Shown here: in pieces, positions 7,398-59,429 of the stretch
Position numbering within the stretch: position 1 is the stretch's first letter
Layout: the number at the start of each line of letters is the position of its first letter
Source of the DNA: Mobula hypostoma
Taxonomy: Eukaryota
DNA length: 64,000 nt
Assembly (NCBI RefSeq): GCF_963921235.1
Contig: NC_086097.1
Coordinates: 34,784,001 to 34,848,000 of the forward strand
Reading direction: 5' to 3'
Translations under genes and position numbers: made by a program
Notes under the pieces: generated by a model
The model's database searches: none
The model's input: the letters and a program-made list of their open reading frames with translations, nothing else
Told to the model about the DNA's origin: nothing

Positions 7398-7522
7398 CAT
7401 AAACAAGAGAAATCTGCAGATGCTGGAAATCCAAGCAACACACACACACACACAAAATGCTGGAGGAACTCAGCAGGCCAGGCAGCATTGATGGAAAAGA
7501 GTACACAGTCGATGTTTCAGGC
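7398..7522 (-). mobile_element. Penelope-like terminal-repeat fragment
   Basis: tgcagatgctggaaatccaagcaacacac...gctggaggaactcagcaggcc...cagtcgatgtttcaggc. Same family as 22206-22820. Confidence 0.8.
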
Positions 7523-8182: not shown

Positions 8183-8293
8183 CACACACGAGGAATTCTG
8201 CAGATGCTGGAAATTCAGGCAACACACATCAAAGTTGCTTGTGAAAGCAGCAGGCCAGGCAGCATCTCTAGGAAGAGGTACAGTTGACATTTC
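8183..8293 (-). mobile_element. Penelope-like terminal-repeat fragment
   Basis: Close match to 51481-51614. It ends at cagttgacatttc (reverse complement GAAATGTCAACTG). Confidence 0.8.
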
Positions 8294-12569: not shown

Positions 12570-13735
12570 TCGGGCGGGTTTAGTACTGTATACTGCTCTA
12601 CTTTCCCCAAGCTACAAACTCCCTTCAACCGTAACCAGGCGAGAGCTCACAGGGCTGTTTGTTCACCCCCCGGCCTACGAACGACGTCAAAGCTGTTCAA
12701 CCGAACTTCAATTTTCTTCCTTTCTTCCAGCACGGCCCGCCTTCCCCCCCGACCCGACCCCACCCCGCCCCACTACACAGCCTTTCTCACGGCGTGACGC
12801 CACTGGATTGACCTCGGCACCAACCGCTCAGCGGCGACATGTCGGTTTGATTGACATCGGCGGACAGCCAGTCATCAGGCGTCCCTGCCGTTTGACGTCG
12901 GCGGAGTGTCCCGGCCCCTGCCAATCAACGGGGGACAGGGGGCGGGATGGAGCGGGTGGCCCGCCCATATCCTCCCTCCCTCCCTCCCGCCCTTCCCATC
13001 CTCTCCACACCCCCTCGCTGACTTGACCACACAACCCCATGTTGGAAATAGATACGGCCGTTCGGCGCTGACACAAAAGGAGGAAAAACACAATAGGGAG
13101 GGATAGAAAATACCACACGAGGACCTATCAGGAACGGGCGAGTGCTGGTGAATCAAGTGCGCTCAAGGAATGTGACAGTTTTTTTTTGAGAAAAAAAATA
13201 TAAATCGTCTACTAATTGTTCCCCCATCGCGGAGGGGATCTGATCTCAAACACACGCCGCAGCCGCCCGATTTTATGGACGCTTGAAGTGAGCGGCCCCG
13301 AGGCGGCTGGCGCTAACTGGACAGGAGCCTGGGGGGTTGCTGTGGCCCCGAGCTCGCCTACACGACACCCCCTCCCACCCCTCCGATCGAGAGGCGGAGA
13401 GGACGCCGGCCGGTGGTGGGTGGGGGGCCGCCCGATCGTTTGCTACCGCTCGCCCTCCGATCGCGGGCTGCTGCTGCTGCTTAACGCCACTTTTGCGAGG
13501 TGACCAGGCGCCGGGTTGACGTGATCGGAAGGGATATGTCCTCGCCTACCGTAACCACTCCAACGGAGAAAGTAGATGGATTCACCCGCAAGTCCGTTCG
13601 GAAGACCAAGCAGAAGCGCTCGCAGAGCTCCTCGCAGTACAAGATCCAGGGTAAAGCCGTCGACTTGAACCCCCTGCCTCTACTGAAAGGTAAGGCCACA
13701 AAAGTCAGCCTTCACACTCGGCTCCCCCAGTAGTG
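12570..13735 (+). promoter_or_regulatory. CpG island, promoter and 5' leader of the B56 gene
   Basis: The only long CpG-rich non-repeat stretch. It contains GC boxes (CCCCGCCC near 12763, GGGGCGGG near 12939), CCAAT at 12921, and TGACG motifs at 12685(-), 12795, 12893 and 13517. Confidence 0.85.
13536..13689 (+). CDS. PPP2R5E: First coding exon of a PP2A 56-kDa regulatory subunit (B56/PR61), most like the epsilon isoform
   Basis: Translates to [51 protein letters not shown] plus G, then donor AG|GTAAG (phase 1). It matches the B56 N-terminal [19 protein letters not shown]...PLP.LK. The family call is very secure; epsilon versus alpha is less so. Confidence 0.8.
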
Positions 13736-21420: not shown

Positions 21421-22205
21421 TTTTTATTTGTTAGGGATTTAAAAATAGGAGCTGTAATCCAAAAGCTGCATTCAATCACAAAAGGATATATTTGAAACTT
21501 TTTTTCTACAACATAGTCGGAATCTTGCCCTTTAAAGTTGTGACTGTTGCATAAAGTGGGATCTTTTAAAAACTCAGGTAGATATTTGGATGAAAACATT
21601 AAATGATCAAGAGCAAAGGCAGGTGTGTTAGGTGCATGCTAACCAAGATCCAACTGAAAGTTGAATTAATTACACTGGTCTACCTCTGTTCTTTAGCTGG
21701 AAGATCTACTGACAACTCCTCCTCTATTAATGCTATTATATTTGGCATGAGATGTATTCTTTGTTTTCATCTGGACTTCAGATCGTGAAAAGTGATTAAA
21801 TTGCGTAAACATTAACTTCTGGCATATCACTTTGATATTCGATGAAGCTTACTTACTGGATTAGAATAATTTTTTTTTGAGATTTAATTTTGATACTGAA
21901 ATCCATCCTCTTTAGCAGGTGAGGAAGCAGTTGTACTTCTGCTCCCTGCCAAAATATCGAAATGTAAATGTTTTGCATGTTGGAGATGAGGGTTATTAAT
22001 TGACCAACTTGGTCATTATGTTTTCCTGGTGCTGAACTAGCAGATGTTTGGATTATTCAAAATTATTCATATTAATGCTCTGGTGAACTTTCAATTCTCT
22101 CTTTTTTTTAAAGATAATACATAATAGAGAAATATTTATTGGAACTAGGTAAGTTTTGAGGAAGGATGGTAAACAGAGCTTCAAGGGGAGGCAGTGAACA
22201 GACCA

Positions 22206-22820
22206 GCAACACACACAAAATGCTGGAGGAACTCAGCAGGCCAGGCAGGATCTAGGAAGCAAGTTCAGTTGAAGTTTCGAGCCGAAACCCTTTGGCGGGA
22301 CTGGAGGAAAAAGCTGAGGAATAGATTTAAAAGGTGGGGGAGGGAGAGAGAAACACAAGGTGATGGGTGAAACCGGATGGGGAAGGATGAAGTAAAGAGC
22401 TGGGATGCTGATTGAAGAGGCAGAAGGCCATGTAAGGAAGAAAGAGAAGGTGGGGAGGAACACCAGAGGGAGGTGATGGGCGGGCAAGGAGATAAGGTGA
22501 GAGAGGGAGAAGGGGATGGGAAATGCTGAAGAGTTGGGGGGGGGTTGTTCACAACCCCTTATATTCCGTATGGGTAGCCTTCAACCTGATGGCATGAACA
22601 TCGACTTCTCGAACTTCTGGTAATGCCCCCTTGTGTTTCTCTCTCCCCTCCAAAACCTTTTAAATCTACTCTTCAGCTTTTATTCTCTAGTCCTGCTGAA
22701 GGGGTTTGGCTCGAAATGTTGACTGTACTCTTCTCCTAGATGCTACCTGGCTTGTTGAGTTCCTCCAGCATTTTGCGTGTGTTGCTTGGATTTCCAGCAT
22801 CTGTATATTTTCTCTTGTAG
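22206..22820. mobile_element. Penelope-like element insertion with an inverted terminal repeat
   Basis: A minus-strand repeat (22206-22548) is joined to a plus-strand piece encoding QPLIFRMGSLQPDGMNIDFSNFW* (22552-22623, PLE ORF C-terminus) and a plus-strand repeat. Confidence 0.85.
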
Positions 22821-25282
22821 CGAACGGACCAGGTAAGCTTCAAAGAGGTGTGGCAAATAGACAAGGTGAGTGAGCAGAGAGTGTGGTAACTGATGCCACA
22901 GTGAATGGGAAACGTTAATTGGTGAGCCGGATACTTAAACTGTTAGTATTTCCAAATAGCCAGATAGTGACTTATCAGCATTTTATTGCATTCTGAGACC
23001 AAGTTGTATCTGTAAGAATTGTGTTTGAGTCCGGTATGGTAAGTAATAGCAGTGTTGCTTCATTAATTCACAATTATGTTTTTTTACCACAAGCTTGACA
23101 GTTTGTGTGGTCATACTGTTTTGTGGTAATCTATTAAACTTCAAATTGAAAACATGCAGTGGTAGGATTTGAACAGTTTTTTGTTATGATCAGTGCACAG
23201 CCGTCACTGTAGCTACACATATTGTAGTTGACGTTGAAGTGAGTACACACAGCTAACAATATAAAGATGAATGAGGGGCTCCAGCCCTTGTCAACTTCAT
23301 TCTTCCATGGAATTGATATCTGTTGTTTTAGCTTTAGTCCATGCAATAGTAAATAATAAGAGTTATTATCTTGCATATTGTATGTGTAGCAGTATGCATT
23401 TCTTGTAGTAGCGAAATACATATAAATCAAAAACATAAGTTGACAGAAATGAACAAATTAGCACTGCTGTCAGCTGCTGACATTTTTCTTGATGAAGCAA
23501 GATGCTTTATTTTAATTGTGTGTTGAGTTGCACATGGTTTAACATCCTTTTTTTAAAAAAATGGAAATGAAGGCTTCCAGCTTTAAATGAAGCAGTGTTT
23601 ACTGTACGAGCCTGGATACAGTCTAATCAATGCCCTATATCCCATTGCTGAAACTGCCTAACTCCAGGGCCCTTGAGCAATTCATTGCTATTAGATTGCC
23701 AACAGAGATCAAGAATTTCTGTCTAGTGTGGAGCAATGGAGAGGGCAGCAGTTTGTACCAGCTTCCTGGTACTGCAACAGTTTCAGTAATACATCACTCT
23801 AAAAAATAAAGTATTGATATCTCTTAACATTGATTCCCTTAGAGCTCTAATACTTGGACACACATCCTGAGCACAAATCAAGGTACCAGCAAACACCAAT
23901 ATTTTAAAAATGTTCTTTAGACCATTAATTATAGATTTTCATCTAACCATCTCCCTGCCTTGCGACATTTAGACTGTGAATGGCTGATGGGTTGTGTAAG
24001 GAGTTAGTATTTATGTGTGTTGTACTCTTGTGGGGTTAGAAATTGAATGGAAATAAATCGACTGTGGGACATTAACACAAACATTGTTTTAGCGTAGACT
24101 TGTTAAAATAAGCATCTTTTTGATATAAGCTTTATGCAAAATATATACACTAATACTCACCCATGAGGGTAGGGGTTATGAAACTTGTAATATTTAGCTG
24201 ATTAGAAGCTAGTCAGTTGATAACATAATTTCCTAATTGAGAGTATAGATTTCCCCTGAGTTGAAAGTAAAACGCATCTTGATTTGCTCTGGGGAAAGAT
24301 GTTTTAGTAACATATTTGTTGTATATAATTTCAGGTAGTTAATGTCATAAGAAAAGTGCATTTTTGAGTACTTCATTTGAATTAAGCCCAGTGAACTTGA
24401 GAGATTTTTTTCAAGTGTATGATTCATCTGAGATCCCTCAGAATGAAGCAAGTTGAAATCATAATTATAACTATTCCAGTGAAATTTTGTGTTATCTGCA
24501 TGAAAGTTGCAATGACTTACAAGATTTTGTTGAAAGTGTGTAGATGGGTTGTGTGGTTGGTTACAAACATTCTTGCTGCATATAAACAATTGCCTTCAAT
24601 TGGGAAAAAAAAACATGGTCTCGAGGACATGTGGTTTTGTTTGAGCAAATGTTCTGTTTTCATTGTGGGTTACTTAAAAAAAAATTAGATTGTCATTTTG
24701 GTTTGATGGGTTAGGACTAAATCACAATGTTAAGAAAATGGGCTTGATGGATTTGAATGAGTGCAAATTTAGATGTGTTGGGTTGATTAGAAATTGAAAC
24801 CTAGTTTATCAGTGGTCTTTGTAATTATGTGCTGAATTATTGAAAACATGCCAGGGACAGGGTTTAGACCCCCTTCACACAAAGACTTTGTAATTAGATG
24901 ATAAAGGTAAAAAAATAGAGCAGAATTTTTTATTGTAAAATACCATGTAAGATACCAGACGCTTATTGGGGTTAGGTGTCACAGTTACTGGCTGCCTTTA
25001 AAAGTATGTGATTGGATGCTTTCAAGCAAAAGGGCTGTGGCACCATAAAGATGAGCCCAGTTTTGTAGTTTCCCATGATTCAAGTGCACTTTATATGGGG
25101 TTTAGCAGAATTTAATTGGGCAAAGATGATTTTTTAAAAAAGTTTTGTTTCAACCTTCCACTATGGATCAAGCTTACTTTGATTGGAAAACCAAAGGTAT
25201 AATACGTTTTCATGATCTATTTCTGGATAATTGTTTCATGTCTTTTGATCAACTTTCTAATAAATATAACTTACCCAGATCT

Positions 25283-25378
25283 GAGTCCTGACGAAGGGTC
25301 TCGGCCTGAAACGTCGACTGCACCTCTTCCTACGGATGCTGCTTGGCCTGCTGCGTTCACCAGCAACTTTGATGTATG
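25283..25378 (+). mobile_element. Young 96-bp Penelope-like insertion with a 12-bp target-site duplication
   Basis: TTACCCAGATCT at 25271-25282 and 25379-25390. Removing the insert restores the L1 reading frame. Confidence 0.9.
25284..25319 (+). ncRNA. Minimal type-I hammerhead ribozyme motif (PLE-associated)
   Basis: AGTC-CTGACGA-AGGGTCTCGGCCT-GAAA-CG-TC-GACT: stem I AGTC/GACT, core CUGANGA and GAAA, short stem II, GUC cleavage triplet. Catalytic activity is untested. Confidence 0.7.
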
Positions 25379-26709
25379 TTACCCAGATCTCACTTTTTTA
25401 GATATCTACAGATTAGAAACTTCTTAATTACTGTTTCTCCTAATTTTCCACACCCATATCCAATGGACACTTTGGAAAAAATTTTAGATTTAAATCTCTT
25501 TCAGAAAAGTGTTGTAGCAATTATATATAATATAATTATGAATTTATGTCCCGATGTTTCCAATAAAATTAAAGCTGACTGGGAAGGTGAACTTAACATT
25601 ATTAAACCGATTGAAAAATGGGAAAAAAATTCTTCAATTGGTTAATTTATCCTCTATATGTGCTAAACATGTGTTGATACAGTTTAAAGTACTACACAGG
25701 GCTCATATGTCTAAAGATAAACTATCTCGTTATTATTCTTATATAAATCCTATATGTGATAGATGTCATTCCGAGATAGCTTCTTTAACTCACATGTTTT
25801 GGTCATGTCCTTTGTTGGAAAAATATTGGAAAGACATTTTTGACATTATTTCAATGGTTTTGAATATAGATTTACAACCTCATCCGATTACTGCTATCTT
25901 TGGATTACCAATGATAGATTCAAATTATCTAACCTCTTCAGCACGTAGGATGATTGCATTTCTTACTCTAATGGCTAGAAGATCCATTTTGCTGAATTGG
26001 AAAGAGATTAACCCTCCTACGGTATTTCATTGGTTTTCACAAACTATGGTATGTTTGAATTTGGAAAAAATTAGAAGTGCGGTTTATGACCCTTCCATTA
26101 CATTTGAAAAAAACTTGGAGGCCATTCATTCAGCATTTTCATTTGATGTAATTTGACCATTTCCAAACTTGTTTTATTTCTCTGTATTGTTGGTTGAGAG
26201 GAATGGAGTCGTCGACACTAAGGTTTTCTTCTTTCCCATTTTCAAGTTGTTAGTATTGCCCAAGTCTTTTAGTTTAGTTGACTAATTCTGTTTAGTTTAG
26301 TTTTTTTGGGGGATGGGGTTTGTGTTTTTTTTTCTTTTTCATGATTTTTCTTCAGTTTTTTTTGCTTTGTATTATTCACTATTATTCTGCACGATTGGGA
26401 GCTTTGTTAATTTTTACTATTTGGTTTTATAATTACTCATTTTAAATGTAACAATGTATCTCCTACTACTTGTATTTTTGCTTTGTTATGTTTTCATTCT
26501 ATGAAATTAATAAAAAGATTGAAAAGTTTTGTTATTCTGCGATGTAAATAATTCAACGTGTTTGTGATCTGTATAGCTCACCGCCTTACAAGGTAATGTC
26601 TTAATCTATATTGGAAAGTTCCTGTAATTTATCTTGGAATTCGCTACTGTGGTATATTTGTTTATTGCCTTGCTATTAGTTTAGTGTAAATGTATGGTAA
26701 AATAACATT

Positions 26710-28330
26710 TCAAAGTTCAAAATAAATAAGTCACCATAAAAACCCTGAGATTCATTTTCTTGCAGGCATATGTAGTAAATCCAAGAAACACAGAATCAGT
26801 GACAGACTGCACTCAACAGAACGGACAAACAACCAGTGTGCAAAAGACAACAAACTGTGGAAATACAAATAATAATAAGGAAATAAATAAATAAACAATA
26901 AATGCCGAGAACATGAATGAGTCCATAGGTTGTGGGAGTAGTTCAGATGATGGGGTGAGTGATGTTGAGTGAAGTTATCCCCGTGGGTTCAAGAGCCTGA
27001 TGGTTGAGGAGTAAGAGCTGTGTCTGAACCTGGTGTGTGTACCATCTTTCTGAAGGCAACAGCAAAAAGAGAGTATGGCTTGGATGGTGGGAGTCCTTGA
27101 TGATGGATGTTGCTTTCCTGTGATGACCGTCCACGTAGATGTGCTCAGTGGTGAGGAGGTCTTTATCCGTGATGGACTAAGCCATATCTACTACTTTTTG
27201 TAAGATTTCCCCTGTTTAAGGGCATTGGTGTTTCTGTGCCAGGCTGTGATGTAACTAGTCAATATACTCTCCATCACACATCTAGAGAAGTCTGTCAGTG
27301 TTTTAGATGTCATGCTGAATCTTTGCAAACTTCTAAGGAGGTAGAGGCGCTGCTGTGCTTTCTTTGTAATTGCATTGGTGTCATGGGTCGAGGGCAGACC
27401 TCCTGAAATTATAACACTGAGTATTTTTAAAGTTGCAGACACTCTCCACCTCTGATCCCCCGATGACGACTAGCTCATGGACCTCTGGTTTCCTCCTCCT
27501 GAAGTCATTAATTAGCTCCTTAGACTTGCTGACATTGAGTGAGAGGTTTTTGTGGCACCATTCAGTCAGATATGCAATCTCTTTCCCATATGCTAATTCG
27601 TCACCAGCTTTGATTCAGCCAATGACAGTGGTGGTGTCAGCAAACTTACATATGGTTTTGGAGCTGTGCTTAGTCTCATAGTCATAAGTGTAAAGCAAGT
27701 AGAGTGGGGGCTAAGCACACAACCTTATGCACCTGTGATGGTGGAGATTGTGGAGACGTTTTTCCCAATCCGAATTGACTGAGGTCTGCATGTGAGGAAA
27801 TTGAGGATCCAGTTGTATAAGAAGATATTGAAGCCAAGGTCTTGAAGCTCGTTGATTAGTTTAGAGGGAATGATAATGATTGCTGAGCTGTGAAATGCAT
27901 CTTCACTGTCCAGATGTCCTAGGGTTGAGTGAAGAGCCCATGAAATGGTATCTGCTGTTGACCTGTTGTGCCAGTAGGTGTATTGGGGTGGACTCAAGTC
28001 ACTTCTCAGGCAGGAGTTGGTATGTTTCATCACTTTCCTCTCAAAGCACTTCATCACAGTGGATGTAAGTGCAACCAGATGATAGTCATTGAAGTAGGTT
28101 AACTCATTCTTCTTAGGCACTTGTATAATTGAAGCCTTCTTTAAGCAGATGGGTACCTCAGACTGCCGAAGTGAGAGATTAGGGATATTGATGAATACTC
28201 CAGCCAGTTGATCAGCACAGGCCGTTAGTTCTCGGCCAGGTACCCTATCTGGGCTGGATGCTTTTGTTGGGTTCACCCTCCAGAAGGATGCTCTCATGTT
28301 GGCCTCAGAGACTGAAATCACAGGGTCATC
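26710..28330 (-). mobile_element. Rex1/Babar-type LINE, degenerate RT and 3' end
   Basis: ORF 27725-28321 (CADQLAGVF..NLSL.QSEVP...VALTSTVMKCFER) and ORF 27191-27442 (KKAQQRLYLLRSL). Confidence 0.9.
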
Positions 28331-28721
28331 TTTCTGTGGTAGTAGAGTTGATCTCTGCAGTTTGGAAGGTCTGGGATCTTAGTTGCTTTGTTAGAAAACG
28401 GTATGCGTTTTTATTTTACAAAGCCACATTATCTGCACGCATCAAGGAATGAGTTAGGAGAAAAAAAAGATTTCTGTTGATTTACTCACTTTTCATACTC
28501 ATCCCTAGAGAGTGAATTCTATTCTGTTTCACAAATTTTAGGATAATGAATGATAAATTCCATGAGGGTGAATTTTCATCACTCAAATGACTACAACATG
28601 GGTGGCTGGCGGGGGGGGGGGGGTCACCTGTACTCATTCATGTTATAGATATGAATAGATTTTGGTAGTCTATTGAATATTACTTTCCTCCCAAAATCAG
28701 TTTTTTATTTGTTCATGCCGT

Positions 28722-30339: not shown

Positions 30340-33300
30340 TTTTGAGTGGGCTGCAATCAGCGTGTGGTCAAAAAAAGAAGGGAGGTGTAAATGGAGCAGC
30401 CATTGTTGGAGTGTGGCAGTGTTAGAATGGTTTGACTTTGGCTCAACAGGCTTGGCAAGCAAAAGTAAGTAAGTTTTCAGTAATTTTTTTTCTGTTAGTA
30501 CATAGCTAGTGTGCTGAGAATGGGTCTACAGGTAAAGGTATGTTCTTTGTGTGAGATGTGGGAACTCAGAGATCTTCACTCTCACTGATAACTGCATCTC
30601 CTATAAGTGCATCCAGCTACAGCGCCTAAGAGACCATGTTAAGGAACTGGAATCTGTACCTCAATGAGCTTCGGCTCGTACGGGAAAATGAGATGATAGA
30701 TAGAAACTACAGGGAGGTAGTTACTCCTAAATTGCAGGAGGCAGTAAACTGGGTGACTGTCAAGAGAGAAATGGAATAGGTAACCAGCGCAGAGTATCCC
30801 TGTGGCTGTTCCTCATAGTAATAAGTATACTGCTTGGGGAACAACCTATCAAGGGCAAGCTGCAGCGACTGGGTGTCTGGCTCTGTGGCTAAGAAGAGTA
30901 GGAAGGAGAAGAGGAGTGCAGTAGTGATAGGTGATTCATAACTAGAGGAGCAGAAAGCAGATTTTTTTGATGTGAAAGAGAGACACCTGGATAGTATGTA
31001 GCCTCCCAGGTGCCAGGTCAGGGTTGTCTTGGATTGGAGCCACGGCTTTCTAAAAGCAGGACTTCCAGGGTAGTAATCTATGATTGTTGCCTGGGCTACA
31101 TGCCATTGAAGGTAAGAATAGGATGGTTTGACAGGTGAATGCGTGGCTGAAGAATTGGTGCAGAGGACTGGGTTTCAGATTTCTGGATCATTGGGATTTC
31201 TTCTTGGGAAGGTATGACCTCTTTTTGAAAAAAAAGGATGGGTTGCAATCAACTTGGTGGGGGGAGAGCATTATCTTTGCTGGCAGGTTTGCTACAGCTG
31301 TGGGGTAATGGTTTAAACTAATTTGGTGGGGGATTTGGAACTGGAGTGATAGGGTTGAGGATAGGGCAGTTGGAATACAATTCGATGCAGAGTGTAGTGA
31401 GCGTGAGGGAGGACAAGCAGATGGTAGGGCAAAATTGCAGTCAGTGGAATGAGTTAAAGTGCGGTAGGGGGCCAAAAACAAAAAGGGTGATGAATACAGA
31501 ACAAAAGGTGTTATATTTGAATGCACACAGTATCTGAAACAAGGTAGGTGATCTTGTATCACAGTTAGAGATTGGTAGATATGATGTTGCAGGCATCTGA
31601 GTTGTGGTTGAAAGATCATAGATGGGAGCTTAATACCCAAGGATACACATTGTATCGAAAGAACGGGCAGGTAGGAGAAGGGGATGGCAGGGGGCTCTAT
31701 TGCTAACAAATGAAATCAAATCCTTGGAAGAAGGTGACATAAGATTGGAAGATGTAGAATCCTTGTGGGTAGAGGTAAGAAACTGCAAGGGTAAAAAGAC
31801 CCTGATTGGAAGGGGACACTAGCAGGGATAATGGCAGAGCAGCAGTGGCTGGAATTTCTGGAAGCAATTTGGAAGGCACAGGAAATATACATCCCAAAGA
31901 TGAAGAAGTATTCTAAGTGAGAATGAGGTAACTGTGGATGACAAGGGAAGTCAAAGACTGCATAAAAGCTAAAGGGGGGTGTATGATAGAACAAAAATTA
32001 GTGGGAAGCTAGAAGAATGGGAAGCTTTTTAAAACCAACTAGGTAACTAAAATGCTATAAAGAGAGAAAATATGAAATGTGAAGGTAGGCTAGCCAGTAA
32101 TATAAAAGAGAATACAAAATTTATTTTTCCAAATATATAAAGAGTGAAAGAGATGAGAGTGGATTTCGGACCACTGGGAAATGATGCTGGAGAGGCAGTG
32201 ATAGGGTCAAAGAAATGGCGGATGAACTGAGTAAGTACTTTACATCAGTCTTCACCGTGGAAGACACAAATAGAATGCCAGAAATGCAAGATGTCAGGGC
32301 AGAATAAGTGGCATTACTGTTAATAAGGAGAAGGTGCTTGGGAAGCTGAGAAGTCTAAAGGTAGATAAGTCACCTGGACCAGGTGGTCAACATCCCAGTG
32401 TTCTGAAAGAGGTAGTGAAAAGATCGTGGAGGCATTAGTAATGATCTTTCAAGAATCACTAGATTCTGGAATGGTTCCTGAGGATTGGAAAAATGCAAAT
32501 GTCACTCAACTCTTTAAGAAGGGAGGAGGCAGAAGAAAGGAAATTTATAAACTAGTTAGGCAGACTGCAGTGGTTAGAAAGACATTAGAGTCTATTATTA
32601 AGGATGAGGTTTTGGGCTACTTGGAGGCACATGATAAAATAGGCCAAAGTCTACATGGTTTTCTAAAGGGGAAATCTTGCCTGACAGATCTGTTGGAATT
32701 CTTTGAGGTAACAGGCAGGATAGACAATGGAGAGTCAGTGGATGTTGTATATTTGGATTTTCAGAAGGCCTTTAACAAGGTGCCACCCATGAGGCTGCTT
32801 AACAAGATGAGATGCCATGGTATTTCTGGAAAGGTTGGCTGATAGAAGATTGGCTGACTGACAAGAGGCAAAGAGTGGGAATAAAGGGCACCTTTCCTCA
32901 TTGTCTGCTGGTGACTTGTGGTGTTCCACAGGGGTCTGTGTTGGGACCACTTCTTTTTACGTTATAGGTCACAGATTTTAATGAAGGCATTACTGGCTTT
33001 GTGGCCAAATTTGCAGATGATATGAAAATGAGTAGAGGGGAAGGTAAAGGAAAAAGTGTCTGCAAAAGGCAAATTGAGGGGTTGGGCAAGGAAGTGGCAG
33101 ATGTAATATAGTATAGGGAAGTGTATGGTCATGCATTTGGCGGAAGAAATAAAGGTATGGACTATTTTCTAAATGGGGAGAGAATTCAAAAATTAGAGAT
33201 GCAAAAGGACTTGGGAGTCCTTATGCAGGATTCCCTAAAGTTAACTTGTAGGTTGAGTTGGTGGTAAGGAAGGCAAATGCAGTGTTTGCATTCATTTTGA

Positions 33301-36383: not shown

Positions 36384-36546
36384 AAACAAGAGAAAATCTG
36401 GAAAATACTGGAGGAACTCAGCAGGCCAGACAGCATCAATGGAAATGTGTAAACAGTTCACGTTTCAGGGTCTTGGCCCGAAACATCGACTGTTCACTCT
36501 TTTCCATGGGTCCTGCCTGGCCTGCTGAGTTCCTCCAGCATTTTGC
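36384..36546. mobile_element. Fold-back Penelope-like insertion
   Basis: Two inverted copies of the terminal repeat are joined at gtttcagggtcttggcccgaaac. Confidence 0.85.
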
Positions 36547-37277
36547 TGCATTATCAAGATGGTTGTCTTCATTGTTAAGGATTTGCCATCTCTACTTAGT
36601 GGAACTAAAAAGGTGTTGCATATTTAGTAGAATTTAAAGCAAAATGTTTGAATGCTTTTTATTGAGTCCAAATGGAGAGTCTCTACCCTCTATAGATGCT
36701 GCTTGACCTGTTTCTTTTTCCACTGGTTTCTCCAGCATTTTGTATGTTACTCCAGATTCTAGCATCTGTGGTCTCTTATTAAAATGTCTGTTCTGTTAAG
36801 AGCCCCATTTCATGTTTCTATATTTTATACTACTTTGTTTTTCAATTCTCTTTGTGTGAAATTGTTGCAGATTGTTAGGAAAATAGACTAACTGGAAAAT
36901 CAAGAATTGGTGGTGTGTAACTTGAATGTATTGGATACTTTTCCGGAGGATGTCTATGACCAGATTATATGTCAAATGACAAGTTTCACCAATGGCAAAT
37001 GAATTTTGACCTCTCAGTACTTCATTCCCTGTGGGATTTAAAAAAAAATTATTCCCAGGGTCTGAAGTTTTTTTTAGATCTGGATTCCTAGATAGTCCTA
37101 TTTGTTGAGTATTTAAATGCAGCCTGTTAGTTCATGATGCCATTTCATTCCTCTGCCTTTACCTAGCTGAAGAATTGAGGCTGTTTGTTGTAAACTGCAG
37201 AGGTGAAAATGTTTTGTTATGCAAATTAGTTCTCACATTAACTTTCTGCCCTAGTGACGGCTCATTACCCCGTTCTT

Positions 37278-38069
37278 TAGAAACATAGAAAACCTACAGC
37301 ACAATACAGGCCCTTCGGCCCACAAAGTTGTGCCGAACATTACCCTACCTTAGAAATTACTAGGCTTACCTATAGCCCTCTATTTTCCTAAGCTCCATGT
37401 ACCTATCCAAAAGTCTCTTAAAAGACCCTATCGTATCCGCCTCCACCAACGTCGCCGGCAGCCCATTCCACGCACTCACCACTCTCTGAGTAAAAAACTT
37501 ACCCCTGACATCTCCTCTGTACCTTCTCCCCAGCACCCTAAACCTGTGTCCTCTTGTGGCAACCATTTCAGCCCTGGGAAAAAGCCTCTGACTATCCACA
37601 CGATCAATGCCTCTCATCATCTTATACACCTCTATCAGGTCACCTCTCGTCCCCTGTCGCTCCAAGGAGAAAAGGCCAAGTTCACTTAACCTGTTTTCAT
37701 AAGGCATGCTCCCCAATGCAAGCAGCATCCTTGTAAATCTCCTCTGCACCCTTTCTATGGCTTCCACATCTATCCTGTAGTGAGGCGACCAGAACTGAGC
37801 ATAGTATTCCAAGTGGTGTCTGACCAGGGTCCTATATAGCTGCAACATTACCTCTGGGCTCCTAAATTCAATTCCACGATTAATGAAGGCCAGTACACCG
37901 TATGCCTTCTTAACCACAGAGTCAACCTGCGCAGCTACTTTGAGCGTCCTGTGGACTCGGACCCCAAGGTCCCTCTGATCCTCCACACTGCCAAGAGTCT
38001 TACCATTAATATTATATTCTGCCATCATATTTGACCTACCAAAATGAACCACCTCACACTTATCTGGGT
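37278..38069 (-). mobile_element. Young 5'-truncated CR1 LINE with an open ORF2 C-terminus
   Basis: Uninterrupted 228-aa ORF 37366-38052 (RDLGV..., LVRHHLEY.AQFWSP, RGDLIEVYK) and a tagaaacatagaaa tail. Confidence 0.95.
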
Positions 38070-38250
38070 TCTCCTCTTCTTCTGTCCATCACCTGTACTG
38101 GGGCACAGGCTGCCGATTGCAGCTGGCCATAGTATTCTGTCTTTTAGGTGTAATCCATTGAATGTCCTTCCACTCCCAGGGATGAGGTGTTGGCGTTCCT
38201 GTAGCTGTGGGTCTTTACAGGATGGGGTTGCTAACCCCATGCCCAACACT
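38070..38250 (-). mobile_element. RTE-like short retroelement
   Basis: cttcttc tail and tttacaggatggggttgctaaccccatgcccaac. Resembles 21003-21420 in part. Confidence 0.5.
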
Positions 38251-42516: not shown

Positions 42517-42716
42517 CGTTCCAGCTTGTGCTGCTTTCCCTCCCCCCACGACATTCTGGCTTCTTCCCCCTTCCTTTCTTGTCCTGAGGAAGGCTCTGTC
42601 AGCCCGAAATATTGATTGTTTATTTTCCTCCATAGGTGCTGTCTGATTGCTGAGTTCCTCCAGCTTTTTGTGGGTCTTGCTCTGGATTTTCAGCATCTGC
42701 AGAATCTTTTGTGTTT
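42517..42716 (+). mobile_element. Penelope-like terminal repeat with a decayed hammerhead motif
   Basis: CTGAGGA at 42584 and GAAA at 42606, followed by tgctgagttcctccagc...cagcatctgcag. Confidence 0.8.
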
Positions 42717-45401: not shown

Positions 45402-46036
45402 CCGTAAGACATAGAAGTAGAATTAGGCCGTTTGGCCCACAGGTTCCGGTCTGCCATTTGATATTCAATAAGTTTCAATATTCGATAGGTTACAATGCGA
45501 TTCCACCCCCCCCTCTTCTAAACTCCATTGAGCCCAGGTTCAGAGTCACTAAACACTCCTAATTTGTTAACTCTCTCAATCCCAATGTCATTCTCATCAA
45601 CCTTCTCTGGGCCTTCTCCAATGCTAGCACATCCTTTCTTAGACAAGGGGCTAAAAACGGCTCAGTACTCCCAAGTGCAGTCTGACCAGTGCCTTATAAG
45701 CCTCAGCGTTACATCCTTGCTTTCATATTCTACTCCCTTTGAAAGAAATGCTGCCATTTGCCTTCCTTACCACTGATTCAACCTGCTAGTTAATCTTTAG
45801 GCAATCCTGCACAATGACTTCCAAGTCTCTTAGCATCTGATTTTTCTCCCCATTTAGAAAATAGTGTACACCTTTATTCCTTCCATCAAAGTACATGACC
45901 ATACATTTCCCTACATGATATTCCATCTGCCACTTTGTCCATTCTTCTAATTTCTCTAAGTCCTTCTGAAGACCCCCTGCTTCCTCAGCAGTACTTGCCA
46001 CTCCACTTATCTTGGTATCTTCCACAAAGTCATCAA
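45402..46036 (-). mobile_element. CR1 LINE fragment with an internal deletion
   Basis: ORF 45786-46043 (FVEDTKISG...LQKDLEKL..W.KWQM) and a taagacatag tail. Confidence 0.85.
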
Positions 46037-46038
46037 TG

Positions 46039-46697
46039 CACACAGGATGCTGGAGGAATTCATCGGGCCAGGCAGCATCTCTGGAAAAGAGTAAACTGTT
46101 GACGTTTTGGGCTGAGACCCTTTGTCAGGTCTAGACAAACAGATGAGAAGTTAGAGCAAGAAGATGGAGGGAGGGTAGGAAGGAGTACCTGGTGGTAGAT
46201 AGGTGAAACTGGGAGAAGGAGATGGGTGATGCAAAGAGCTGGGAAACTGATAGGTCAGAGGGATAGAGCTGGAGAAGGGGGATTCGAATAGGAGAGGGTA
46301 GATGGCCATGGGAGTAAGGGAAGGGGGATGAGCACCAGAGGAAGGTGATGGTCGGGTAAGATGAGGTAAGAGAGGGATACTGTAAAGGGAATGGTGAAGT
46401 GGGGGGGGGCAGTTATCAGAGGTTTGCGAAATCGATGTTCATGCCTTTGTGTTGGAGGCTACCCAGACAGAATATAAGGTGTTGCTCCTCCAACCTGAGT
46501 GTGGACTCATTGTGGCAGTAGAGGAGGCCATGGACATTTTGGAATGGGAATGAGAAGTAGAGTTGAAGTGGGTGGCCATGGGGAAATCCCGCTTTTTCTG
46601 GCGGGCTTGGCGAAGTGGTTTCCTAATCTACACCGGGTCTTTCTGATATACAGGAGGCCACACCAGGGGTATCAGATACAGTAGATGACCCCAACAA
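46039..46697 (-). mobile_element. Penelope-like element 3' fragment with a GIY-YIG endonuclease remnant
   Basis: The minus strand reads VGVIYCI*YPWCGLLYIRKTRCRLGNHFAK...VHGLLYCHNESTLRLEEQHLIFCLGSLQHKGMNIDFANL*, followed by the terminal repeat. Confidence 0.9.
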
Positions 46698-51393: not shown

Positions 51394-51922
51394 CAGTGGT
51401 GCAGTGCTAGCTGGAGCGTACCGGAGTGCGTCTGGCACATCTTTAAGAAAAAAAGCCAAAACAAACAAGCTAATTAATTAAACGCAAACAACAGGAATTC
51501 TGCAGATGCTGGAAATTCAAGCAACATACATCAAAGTTGCTGGTGAACGCAGCAGGCCAAGCAGCATCTATAGGAAGAGGCGCAGTCGACGTTTCAGGCC
51601 GAGACCCTTCGTCACCTAATTAATTAGGTGTCACCCAGGGTGATTTGAGTATCTCAGAAACTGCTGATCTCCTGTGATTTTTACACACAACAGACTCTGG
51701 AGTTTACAAAGAATGGTGCCAAAAACAAAAAAAAAGTCCAGTGAGTGGATTGAACAAGATGTTTTCGCTCACAGAACAGCCACTTGCTGGATGTTTTTTT
51801 TTTATTTTTGATACTCAAATCACCCTGGACAGCACCTAATTAATTAGCTTGTTTATTTCAGCTTTTTTCTTAAAGATGTGCCAGATGCGCTCTGGTGCGC
51901 TCCGGCTAGCATTATACCACTG
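51394..51922. mobile_element. hAT-like MITE with ~110-bp inverted arms and an 8-bp TSD
   Basis: CAGTGG...CCACTG termini. The flanks CCTTCACA and CCTACACA match at 7/8. Confidence 0.8.
51481..51615 (-). mobile_element. Young Penelope-like insertion with an 11-bp flanking duplication
   Basis: CTAATTAATTA at 51470 and 51616. It has 3 mismatches over 92 nt relative to 25289-25380. Confidence 0.9.
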
Positions 51923-59199: not shown

Positions 59200-59376
59200 A
59201 TACTCTTCCCCCACCTTTTTATTCTGGCATTTCCCCCCCTCCCCTTACTTCTCTGTCCTGAAGAAGGGGCTTGCTTGAAACGGCTCCATAGATGCTGCCT
59301 GACCTGCTGAGTTCCTCAGCATTTTGTGTATATGTTGCTCTGGATTTTCCAACACTGCGGACTTTCTCATGTTTAT
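59200..59376 (+). mobile_element. Penelope-like terminal repeat with a partly deleted hammerhead motif
   Basis: CTGAAGA at 59258 and GAAACG at 59277, followed by atagatgctgcctgacctgctgagttcctc. Confidence 0.8.
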
Positions 59377-59429
59377 CTCTACATTTTGATACTTTTTGGG
59401 ACCAGGTCAATAAGAATAGGGGTAATGAG

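Follow-up and report, generated by a model that had tools for sequence, protein, structure and literature searches.

A minimal hammerhead motif in a B56 gene intron of Mobula hypostoma belongs to an abundant Penelope-like retroelement and is most likely inert

The hammerhead motif present in the first coding intron of a B56 gene of Mobula hypostoma belongs to a retroelement, was delivered by one target-primed insertion and is most likely inert rather than a device for host-gene control, a reading to which we give a probability of roughly 80%. The motif lies in a stretch of 64,000 nucleotides of contig NC_086097.1, which is referred to as the window and whose positions are used below. As reported in the first-pass annotation, a 36-nt motif is found at 25284-25319 of the plus strand with the letters described, and it is not a chance match. 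Its parts are as follows.

25284..25319, plus strand: minimal type-I hammerhead motif, from the sequence, shuffles and a descriptor, fitting the published consensus
25284..25287, plus strand: 5' strand of stem I, from copy comparison
25288..25295, plus strand: core C3-A9 and an unpaired extra A, from the sequence (the extra nucleotide is a published trait)
25296..25307, plus strand: stem II, 4 bp, with closing pair G10.1.U11.1 (C11.1 in other subfamilies), from pair probabilities and copies
25308..25315, plus strand: G12-A15.1, palindromic CG, U16.1 and C17, with the predicted cut after 25315, from the sequence and the PMC4209133 numbering
25316..25319, plus strand: 3' strand of stem I, from the sequence and copy comparison

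The core and stem I are arranged in the type-I order that had been claimed, with stem I formed by 25284-87 and 25316-19, CUGACGA at 25288-94, GAAA at 25308-11, CG at 25312-13, U16.1 at 25314 and C17 at 25315, and the predicted scissile bond after 25315 agrees with the numbering given in part of PMC4209133. A fifth stem I pair, which is U.G in the family, is absent here because of the truncation of this copy. A stem II is also present as annotated, whereas the A-U register assigned to it did not hold, its pair probability being 0.02 versus 0.86-0.95 for GGGU/GCCU; that register was kept in only 8 of 26 old copies, while G10.1 is paired in 23 of 25. Stem II is better drawn as four base pairs (GGGU/GCCU) with a CUCG loop, a G10.1.U11.1 pair and an unpaired extra A at 25295. 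Position 25307 alternates between U and C among copies and is the sole variant inside the motif among those listed for four sequencing runs. The C at 11.1, giving a G-C pair, occurs in 14 of 25 old copies and accounts for 18-73% of contig depth in the four runs.

Cervera and de la Pena 2014 (parts of PMC4209133) defined minimal hammerhead ribozymes (min-HHRs) by the lack of helix III, a palindromic 15.2-16.2 and one additional nucleotide preceding 10.1, and the same source describes them in the terminal repeats of Penelope-like elements (PLEs), as the earlier annotation had stated. The present motif shows these traits, namely a type-I core of CUGANGA...GAAA...UH without helix III, a palindromic 15.2-16.2 and an extra nucleotide between 9 and 10.1, and CG occupies 15.2-16.2 in 73 of 76 young copies. 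The stem III had been called unusual, a view that does not stand, as the palindromic CG without helix III is the defining min-HHR form in that paper. Among 44 published alignment rows of the PMC4209133 supplement, counted by eye, CG was found in 24, 11 of which read CGUC, including fugu, cichlids, lamprey, Xenopus and snake, so that ACGU is the norm and the commonest form in the rows examined; the terms 'shark' and 'Callorhinchus' did not occur in the searched part of the supplement. The claim that the palindromic ACGU needs a second copy as its pairing partner is accepted and matches the published min-HHRs, whose monomers are inactive and whose dimers and trimers cleave weakly in vitro according to parts of PMC4209133. 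Further features in common with the min-HHRs described there are the type-I order, CUGANGA with the extra nucleotide, the G10.1-pyrimidine pair, the short stem I, the location in both pLTRs and the predominance of dispersed, solo, truncated copies, while the 4-bp stem II lies at the short end of their range.

It is barely credible that the likeness to a hammerhead arose by chance inside a repeat, and this explanation is refuted as far as sequence allows. In its favor, no Rfam hammerhead match was obtained, either at the gathering score over the whole window or at E<=10 over 25200-25450, and covariation is scarce. By the first of these results the motif falls outside the canonical type-I hammerheads; the Rfam hammerhead models, we infer, require helix III. 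Against chance, 100 shuffles of the window yielded no motif match, and a strict descriptor found five motifs in 174 kb around the window versus none in 60 simulated sequences. Moreover, the motif sits in a PLE pLTR, where such motifs are expected. Across the genome (3.48 Gb), 56,874 exact matches to the core pattern were counted, with none for the reversed-pattern control, which amounts to one core match per 61 kb, and therefore one per window is expected. The motif is thus of an already known min-HHR type and occurs at the expected genome density. For comparison, about 4,000 copies in coelacanth and 9,000 in Xenopus were given in parts of PMC4209133.

A 96-bp insert carries the hammerhead at its 5' end, and the following features describe the insertion and its surroundings.

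25271..25282, plus strand: left target-site duplication, 12 bp, from the sequence and an empty-site joint with 12 ambiguous letters
25283..25378, plus strand: 96-bp 5'-truncated pLTR fragment of a Penelope-like element, from family alignment
25379..25390, plus strand: right copy of the target-site duplication, from the sequence
25135..26156, plus strand: remnant of an older, multicopy L1-like LINE into which the copy inserted (approximate ends), from depth, zf-RVT and open frames
25335..25353, plus strand: second block conserved in old and young subfamilies alike (modal identity of 0.88), from copy alignment
51478..51614, minus strand: second young family copy with tail, antisense to the B56 gene, from family search

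The fragment starts with one extra G, continues with the family sequence between C3-4 and about C3+92 and lacks the 40-nt tail. A joined empty-site form that skips 108 nt is present in contigs of two sequencing runs (X1 and X5); since the flanks are a multicopy LINE and the joints may derive from other LINE copies, this is proof of insertion and not of polymorphism. The LINE was recognized by a contig depth in the thousands from 25135, a zf-RVT domain (E=4.6e-6) in 25542-26153 and open frames to either side of the insert. The insert is 100% identical to five other genome copies; it stands alone and entered the dead LINE recently. Among the contigs examined, none from another organism bridges the insertion. 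No tandem array was found at the locus, and the solo copy with its target-site duplication differs from non-LTR retrozymes, which are made of tandem units carrying two or more hammerheads in a row. The second young copy (51478-51614) lacks C3 and stem I because its 5' end is at C3+1.

The assignment of the motif to a Penelope-like terminal repeat was confirmed, as it belongs to the pLTR of an EN+ PLE family of very high copy number whose full structure is displayed by locus L051. This locus is a partial tandem composed of a hammerhead, a 1,043-codon open frame and a second hammerhead, the two hammerheads being 3,513 nt apart on one strand. The frame matched RVT_1 (E=3e-5) and GIY-YIG (E=0.0011) in Pfam, both below the curated cut-off, with YIDD and YIG motifs visible, and it carries a Cx4Cx2C linker that fits the CX2-5CxxC of the Neptune/Nematis clades. 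A 400-aa partial frame gave no Pfam match, and the 1,043-aa frame retrieved no solved structure at E<=1. Frames of 1,043 codons or longer occur in at least four other places, among 104 scored of 242,713 candidates. In longer copies, the RT and GIY-YIG frame stops about 300 nt upstream of the hammerhead, and the first in-frame ATG is 166 nt past C3. Two 3' ends about 40 nt apart, a 40-nt tail and inverted 5' arms were also recognized. Exact matches to two downstream tiles numbered 100,631 and 106,540, with none for the controls.

The family therefore shows the EN+ PLE traits of RT and C-terminal GIY-YIG in one frame, partial tandems, inverted arms, 5' truncation and a tail. RT with C-terminal GIY-YIG, the CX2-5CxxC linker, partial tandems, inverted 5'-truncated arms and a 30-40-bp tail are shared with the Neptune/Nematis-type EN+ PLEs covered in parts of Craig et al. 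2021 (PMC8557442), and the family fits that type, the clade being suggested by sequence features and not by an RT tree. Unlike the elements described there, the present copy lies outside microsatellite DNA and is flanked by a clean duplication of 12 bp. The pyrimidine-rich segment of about 300 nt between the stop codon and the hammerhead of L051 (4210-4505) ends in CAG and is splice-acceptor-like or initiator-like.

To examine conservation, 104 copies spanning the motif (28 old and 76 young) were taken from 123 nhmmer matches, nine loci overlapping others being excluded. In the 28 old copies, modal identity was 0.91 for the non-CpG columns of the core and 0.88 for the stems versus 0.58 for the upstream flank and 0.65 for the linker, a contrast that is biased because the rows had to cover the hammerhead. 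A downstream block at +47 to +65 is equally conserved (0.88). This block, 25335-25353 in the window and 1043-1061 in L051, lies upstream of the element's 3' ends, is as conserved as the core and is a candidate binding or priming signal for the element protein. Two-sided stem changes are nearly absent, the only one being a switch between C-G and U-A at the fifth pair of stem I, with CpG decay as noise; one-sided changes that keep the pair were seen there and at 10.1-11.1. This pattern agrees with selection on active elements together with neutral CpG decay of the copies.

As to mechanism, the pLTR hammerhead of this abundant EN+ PLE was brought to the intron by one short target-primed insertion. 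In tandem element RNA, two hammerheads 3.5 kb apart may share a 4-bp helix III (ACGU with ACGU) and cut after C17, and such cleavage, judging from the literature, would be slow and probably take place only with the element's protein. For the 96-bp copy, reverse transcription of an uncleaved RNA would have begun just 3' of the hammerhead and ended at the foot of stem I, where 5' ends cluster, either because the RNA started there or because the enzyme was stalled by a predicted hairpin from -18 to +11. In host pre-mRNA, the copy has neither a close partner nor a favored hammerhead fold and is thus most likely inert and subject to neutral decay.

The host gene is described by the following feature.

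13536..13689, plus strand: first coding exon of a B56/PPP2R5 gene, from the in-frame splice to a PF01603 exon

This exon splices in frame to the PF01603 exon 67.8 kb downstream, all on the plus strand, so the motif is sense to a B56 intron as annotated; exon 1 alone has no Pfam match. The host intron is the first coding intron and spans 68 kb, from 13690 to window-equivalent 81503, past the window. The promoter region of the gene (window 12700-13700) is GC-rich and CpG-rich. Other LINE-like reverse-transcriptase fragments are located in the same intron at window 27725-28378, 32369-32842 and 37366-38088, two of which were tested and gave no Pfam match. Family matches in the 174 kb around the window amount to 31. 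Older or truncated subfamily copies with decayed cores, including several inverted pairs, are found at window 7401-7522, 8183-8293, 22205-22818, 36414-36548, 42526-42712, 46026-46265 and 59207-59385.

The first-pass annotation also implied an effect of the motif on host pre-mRNA, which was not borne out: the copy is one of 56,874, stands solo in a dead LINE and has its nearest intact sense partner 69 kb downstream (window-equivalent 94553), in a later intron of the same gene, which contains no further intact sense copy. In structure prediction, the 36-mer alone favors a hairpin in which the core is base-paired to the cleavage triplet, and with 30-150 nt of flank the probability of stems I and II is 0.01 or less, both here and in L051. 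The predicted energies are -9.5 kcal/mol for the double hammerhead, -20.0 for two inactive monomer hairpins and -28.3 for an inactive duplex; this folding argument is soft, because nearest-neighbour energies omit the tertiary contacts of the core. Cleavage of host pre-mRNA is unlikely, given this distance to the partner and an active fold that is not predicted, and the intronic copy is probably inert on these predictions.

One could still suppose that B56 pre-mRNA is cut at a low rate, through the downstream sense copy or PLE RNAs in trans and perhaps with help from a protein, trimming host expression or splicing, which we consider improbable. The motif, oriented sense to the gene, has an intact core and two intact stems, the same gene holds the second intact sense copy, and partners in trans would be abundant. 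In addition, conserved intronic hammerheads of amniotes were proposed to be domesticated (parts of PMC6155905). However, the insertion is recent and in a dead LINE, has one stem I pair fewer than the family and is not predicted to fold as a hammerhead in its context, the partner sits in a later intron, and even dimers cleave poorly in vitro according to parts of PMC4209133. Sense copies are also not depleted across the gene span, where 11 sense and 10 antisense family matches, a small tally, show no strand bias. The ultraconserved amniote hammerheads (RECK etc., parts of PMC6155905) are likewise of type I and in host introns, but they are single loci conserved across classes, whereas the present motif is young, high-copy and without helix III; its youth and LINE context argue against the status of a domesticated intronic hammerhead. 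Another B56 paralogue (exons C22:49433612-49541860, minus strand) carries, in sense orientation, a long insertion of this PLE with an open frame of 562 codons (G000:C22:49506852-49508051, minus strand), and therefore long sense insertions in such introns exist.

Where copies begin was examined in 35 young arms. Contig C1 contributed 23 of them, taken from its first 100 anchor matches, and the 174-kb region the other 12, with the 25283-25378 copy excluded. Their 5' ends fell at C3-8 to C3+7 in 12 arms, at +8 to +58 in five and at -35 to -9 in six, and the other 12 were longer. None of the 35 sampled arms ended at +28, and cleavage was rejected as the main origin of short copies on this basis. 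An origin from spliced templates, for which the pyrimidine tract and CAG before stem I had been considered, was provisionally rejected, since the mapped junctions have no common upstream exon.

Genome-wide, junctions were counted at six positions with a pattern of two non-family letters followed by family sequence. The raw counts, from patterns that differ in span, most at -4, were 3,369 at -4, 432 at +25, 46 at +27, 470 at +28, 103 at +29 and 124 at +31. Corrected for the chance of two letters, they became about 9,400, 1,290, 200, 1,310, 450 and 370, respectively, and a second correction gave about 8,700, 1,110, 200, 1,120, 440 and 410. The scissile position +28 therefore exceeds +29 and +31 by about 2.5-3.5-fold, +27 by 5-6-fold and +25, once the palindrome-linked junctions described next are removed, by only ~1.6-fold. 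Starts exactly at the scissile bond account for about 1% of the 100,631 young copies (between roughly 1,100 and 1,300), some 700-900 above the prediction from its neighbours. Among the first 100 matches at +25, 36 belong to overlapping head-to-head pairs centred on a GTCGAC palindrome, and 54 carry the prefix of that palindrome. Leaving out junctions with the prefix brings +25 to about 750 (by eye). Perfect head-to-head pairs centred on GTCGAC, whose centre is the scissile bond, make up 18 pairs in these first 100 matches, for example G000:C1:69869169-69869216, and two similar pairs at TGCA just downstream indicate that palindromes alone can yield head-to-head pairs.

Tentatively, and with odds clearly below even, the +28 peak might be a fossil of germ-line ribozyme cleavage, in which the reverse transcriptase ran off self-cleaved RNA. 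It may also be explained by a bias for junctions starting with G, as both +25 and +28 do, or by pausing at the bulge of the predicted inactive hairpin at that step. If the fossil reading is true, junction maps of such genomes would measure min-HHR cleavage in vivo, which is not shown in the literature examined. A comparable junction analysis was not found in the literature searched, most subscription papers being outside that scope.

A much larger class begins at the foot of stem I, with about 9,000 copies at C3-4 versus about 1,200 at the cut site, and would mean that the element transcript opens with the hammerhead, where cutting removes the cap. This accumulation of 5' ends would also suit a hammerhead-shaped sequence kept mainly for a role other than cutting, such as a promoter element or a protein binding site, with cleavage being incidental. 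The TCAGTT at C3-10 to -5 is presumably initiator-like. Penelope was reported to have an internal Inr/DPE promoter (part of Schostak 2008), and Naiads thrive without hammerheads (parts of PMC8557442). The hammerhead of the Anolis Poseidon element PAc is dispensable for insertion in vitro, where ribozyme mutants still insert, and no reads start at its cut site (Frangieh et al. 2024, parts of PMC11167929). Nevertheless, the catalytic positions, the extra nucleotide, the G10.1 pair and the palindrome all match the cross-phyla consensus (parts of PMC4209133), and the PAc hammerhead, which cuts only with the element protein, loses cleavage in core mutants (parts of PMC11167929), so we regard a mainly non-cutting role as unlikely. 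Both that explanation and the preferred reading of a retroelement motif delivered by insertion agree that the copy at 25284-25319 is inert.

The element resembles PAc in its pLTR hammerhead and in two 3' ends downstream of the hammerhead with the tail between them, as described in parts of PMC11167929. The PAc frame starts inside the hammerhead, unlike the frame found here with its ATG well downstream, and the small genomic 5'-end peak at the cut site has no counterpart among the PAc reads. Non-LTR retrozymes were described (Li et al., parts of bioRxiv 10.64898/2026.07.22.740005), which are also PLE-derived and type I, include one reported chondrichthyan and have dispersed monomers, many of them in introns, as here; they differ in their tandem units, the present motif being the solo pLTR end of an autonomous family. 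The supplements of that preprint may include the present family.

As a single locus with a known motif, the intronic copy is of little importance. The role of the hammerhead in EN+ PLEs was called unclear (parts of PMC8557442), and the family, which is young and has more than 100,000 copies and intact frames, offers material for base-level tests of RNA start, in vivo cutting and host cost, and the +28 junction peak is the part that deserves proper analysis. Finally, two further neighbourhoods of family copies were noted. The minus-strand copy at 51478-51614 is central in a longer MITE-like element (about 51410-51900) with ~60-bp inverted-repeat ends, at a TAATTAATTA site, and a 177-codon frame upstream of the PLE copy at L008 is presumably similar to the transmembrane portion of retroviral envelope proteins.
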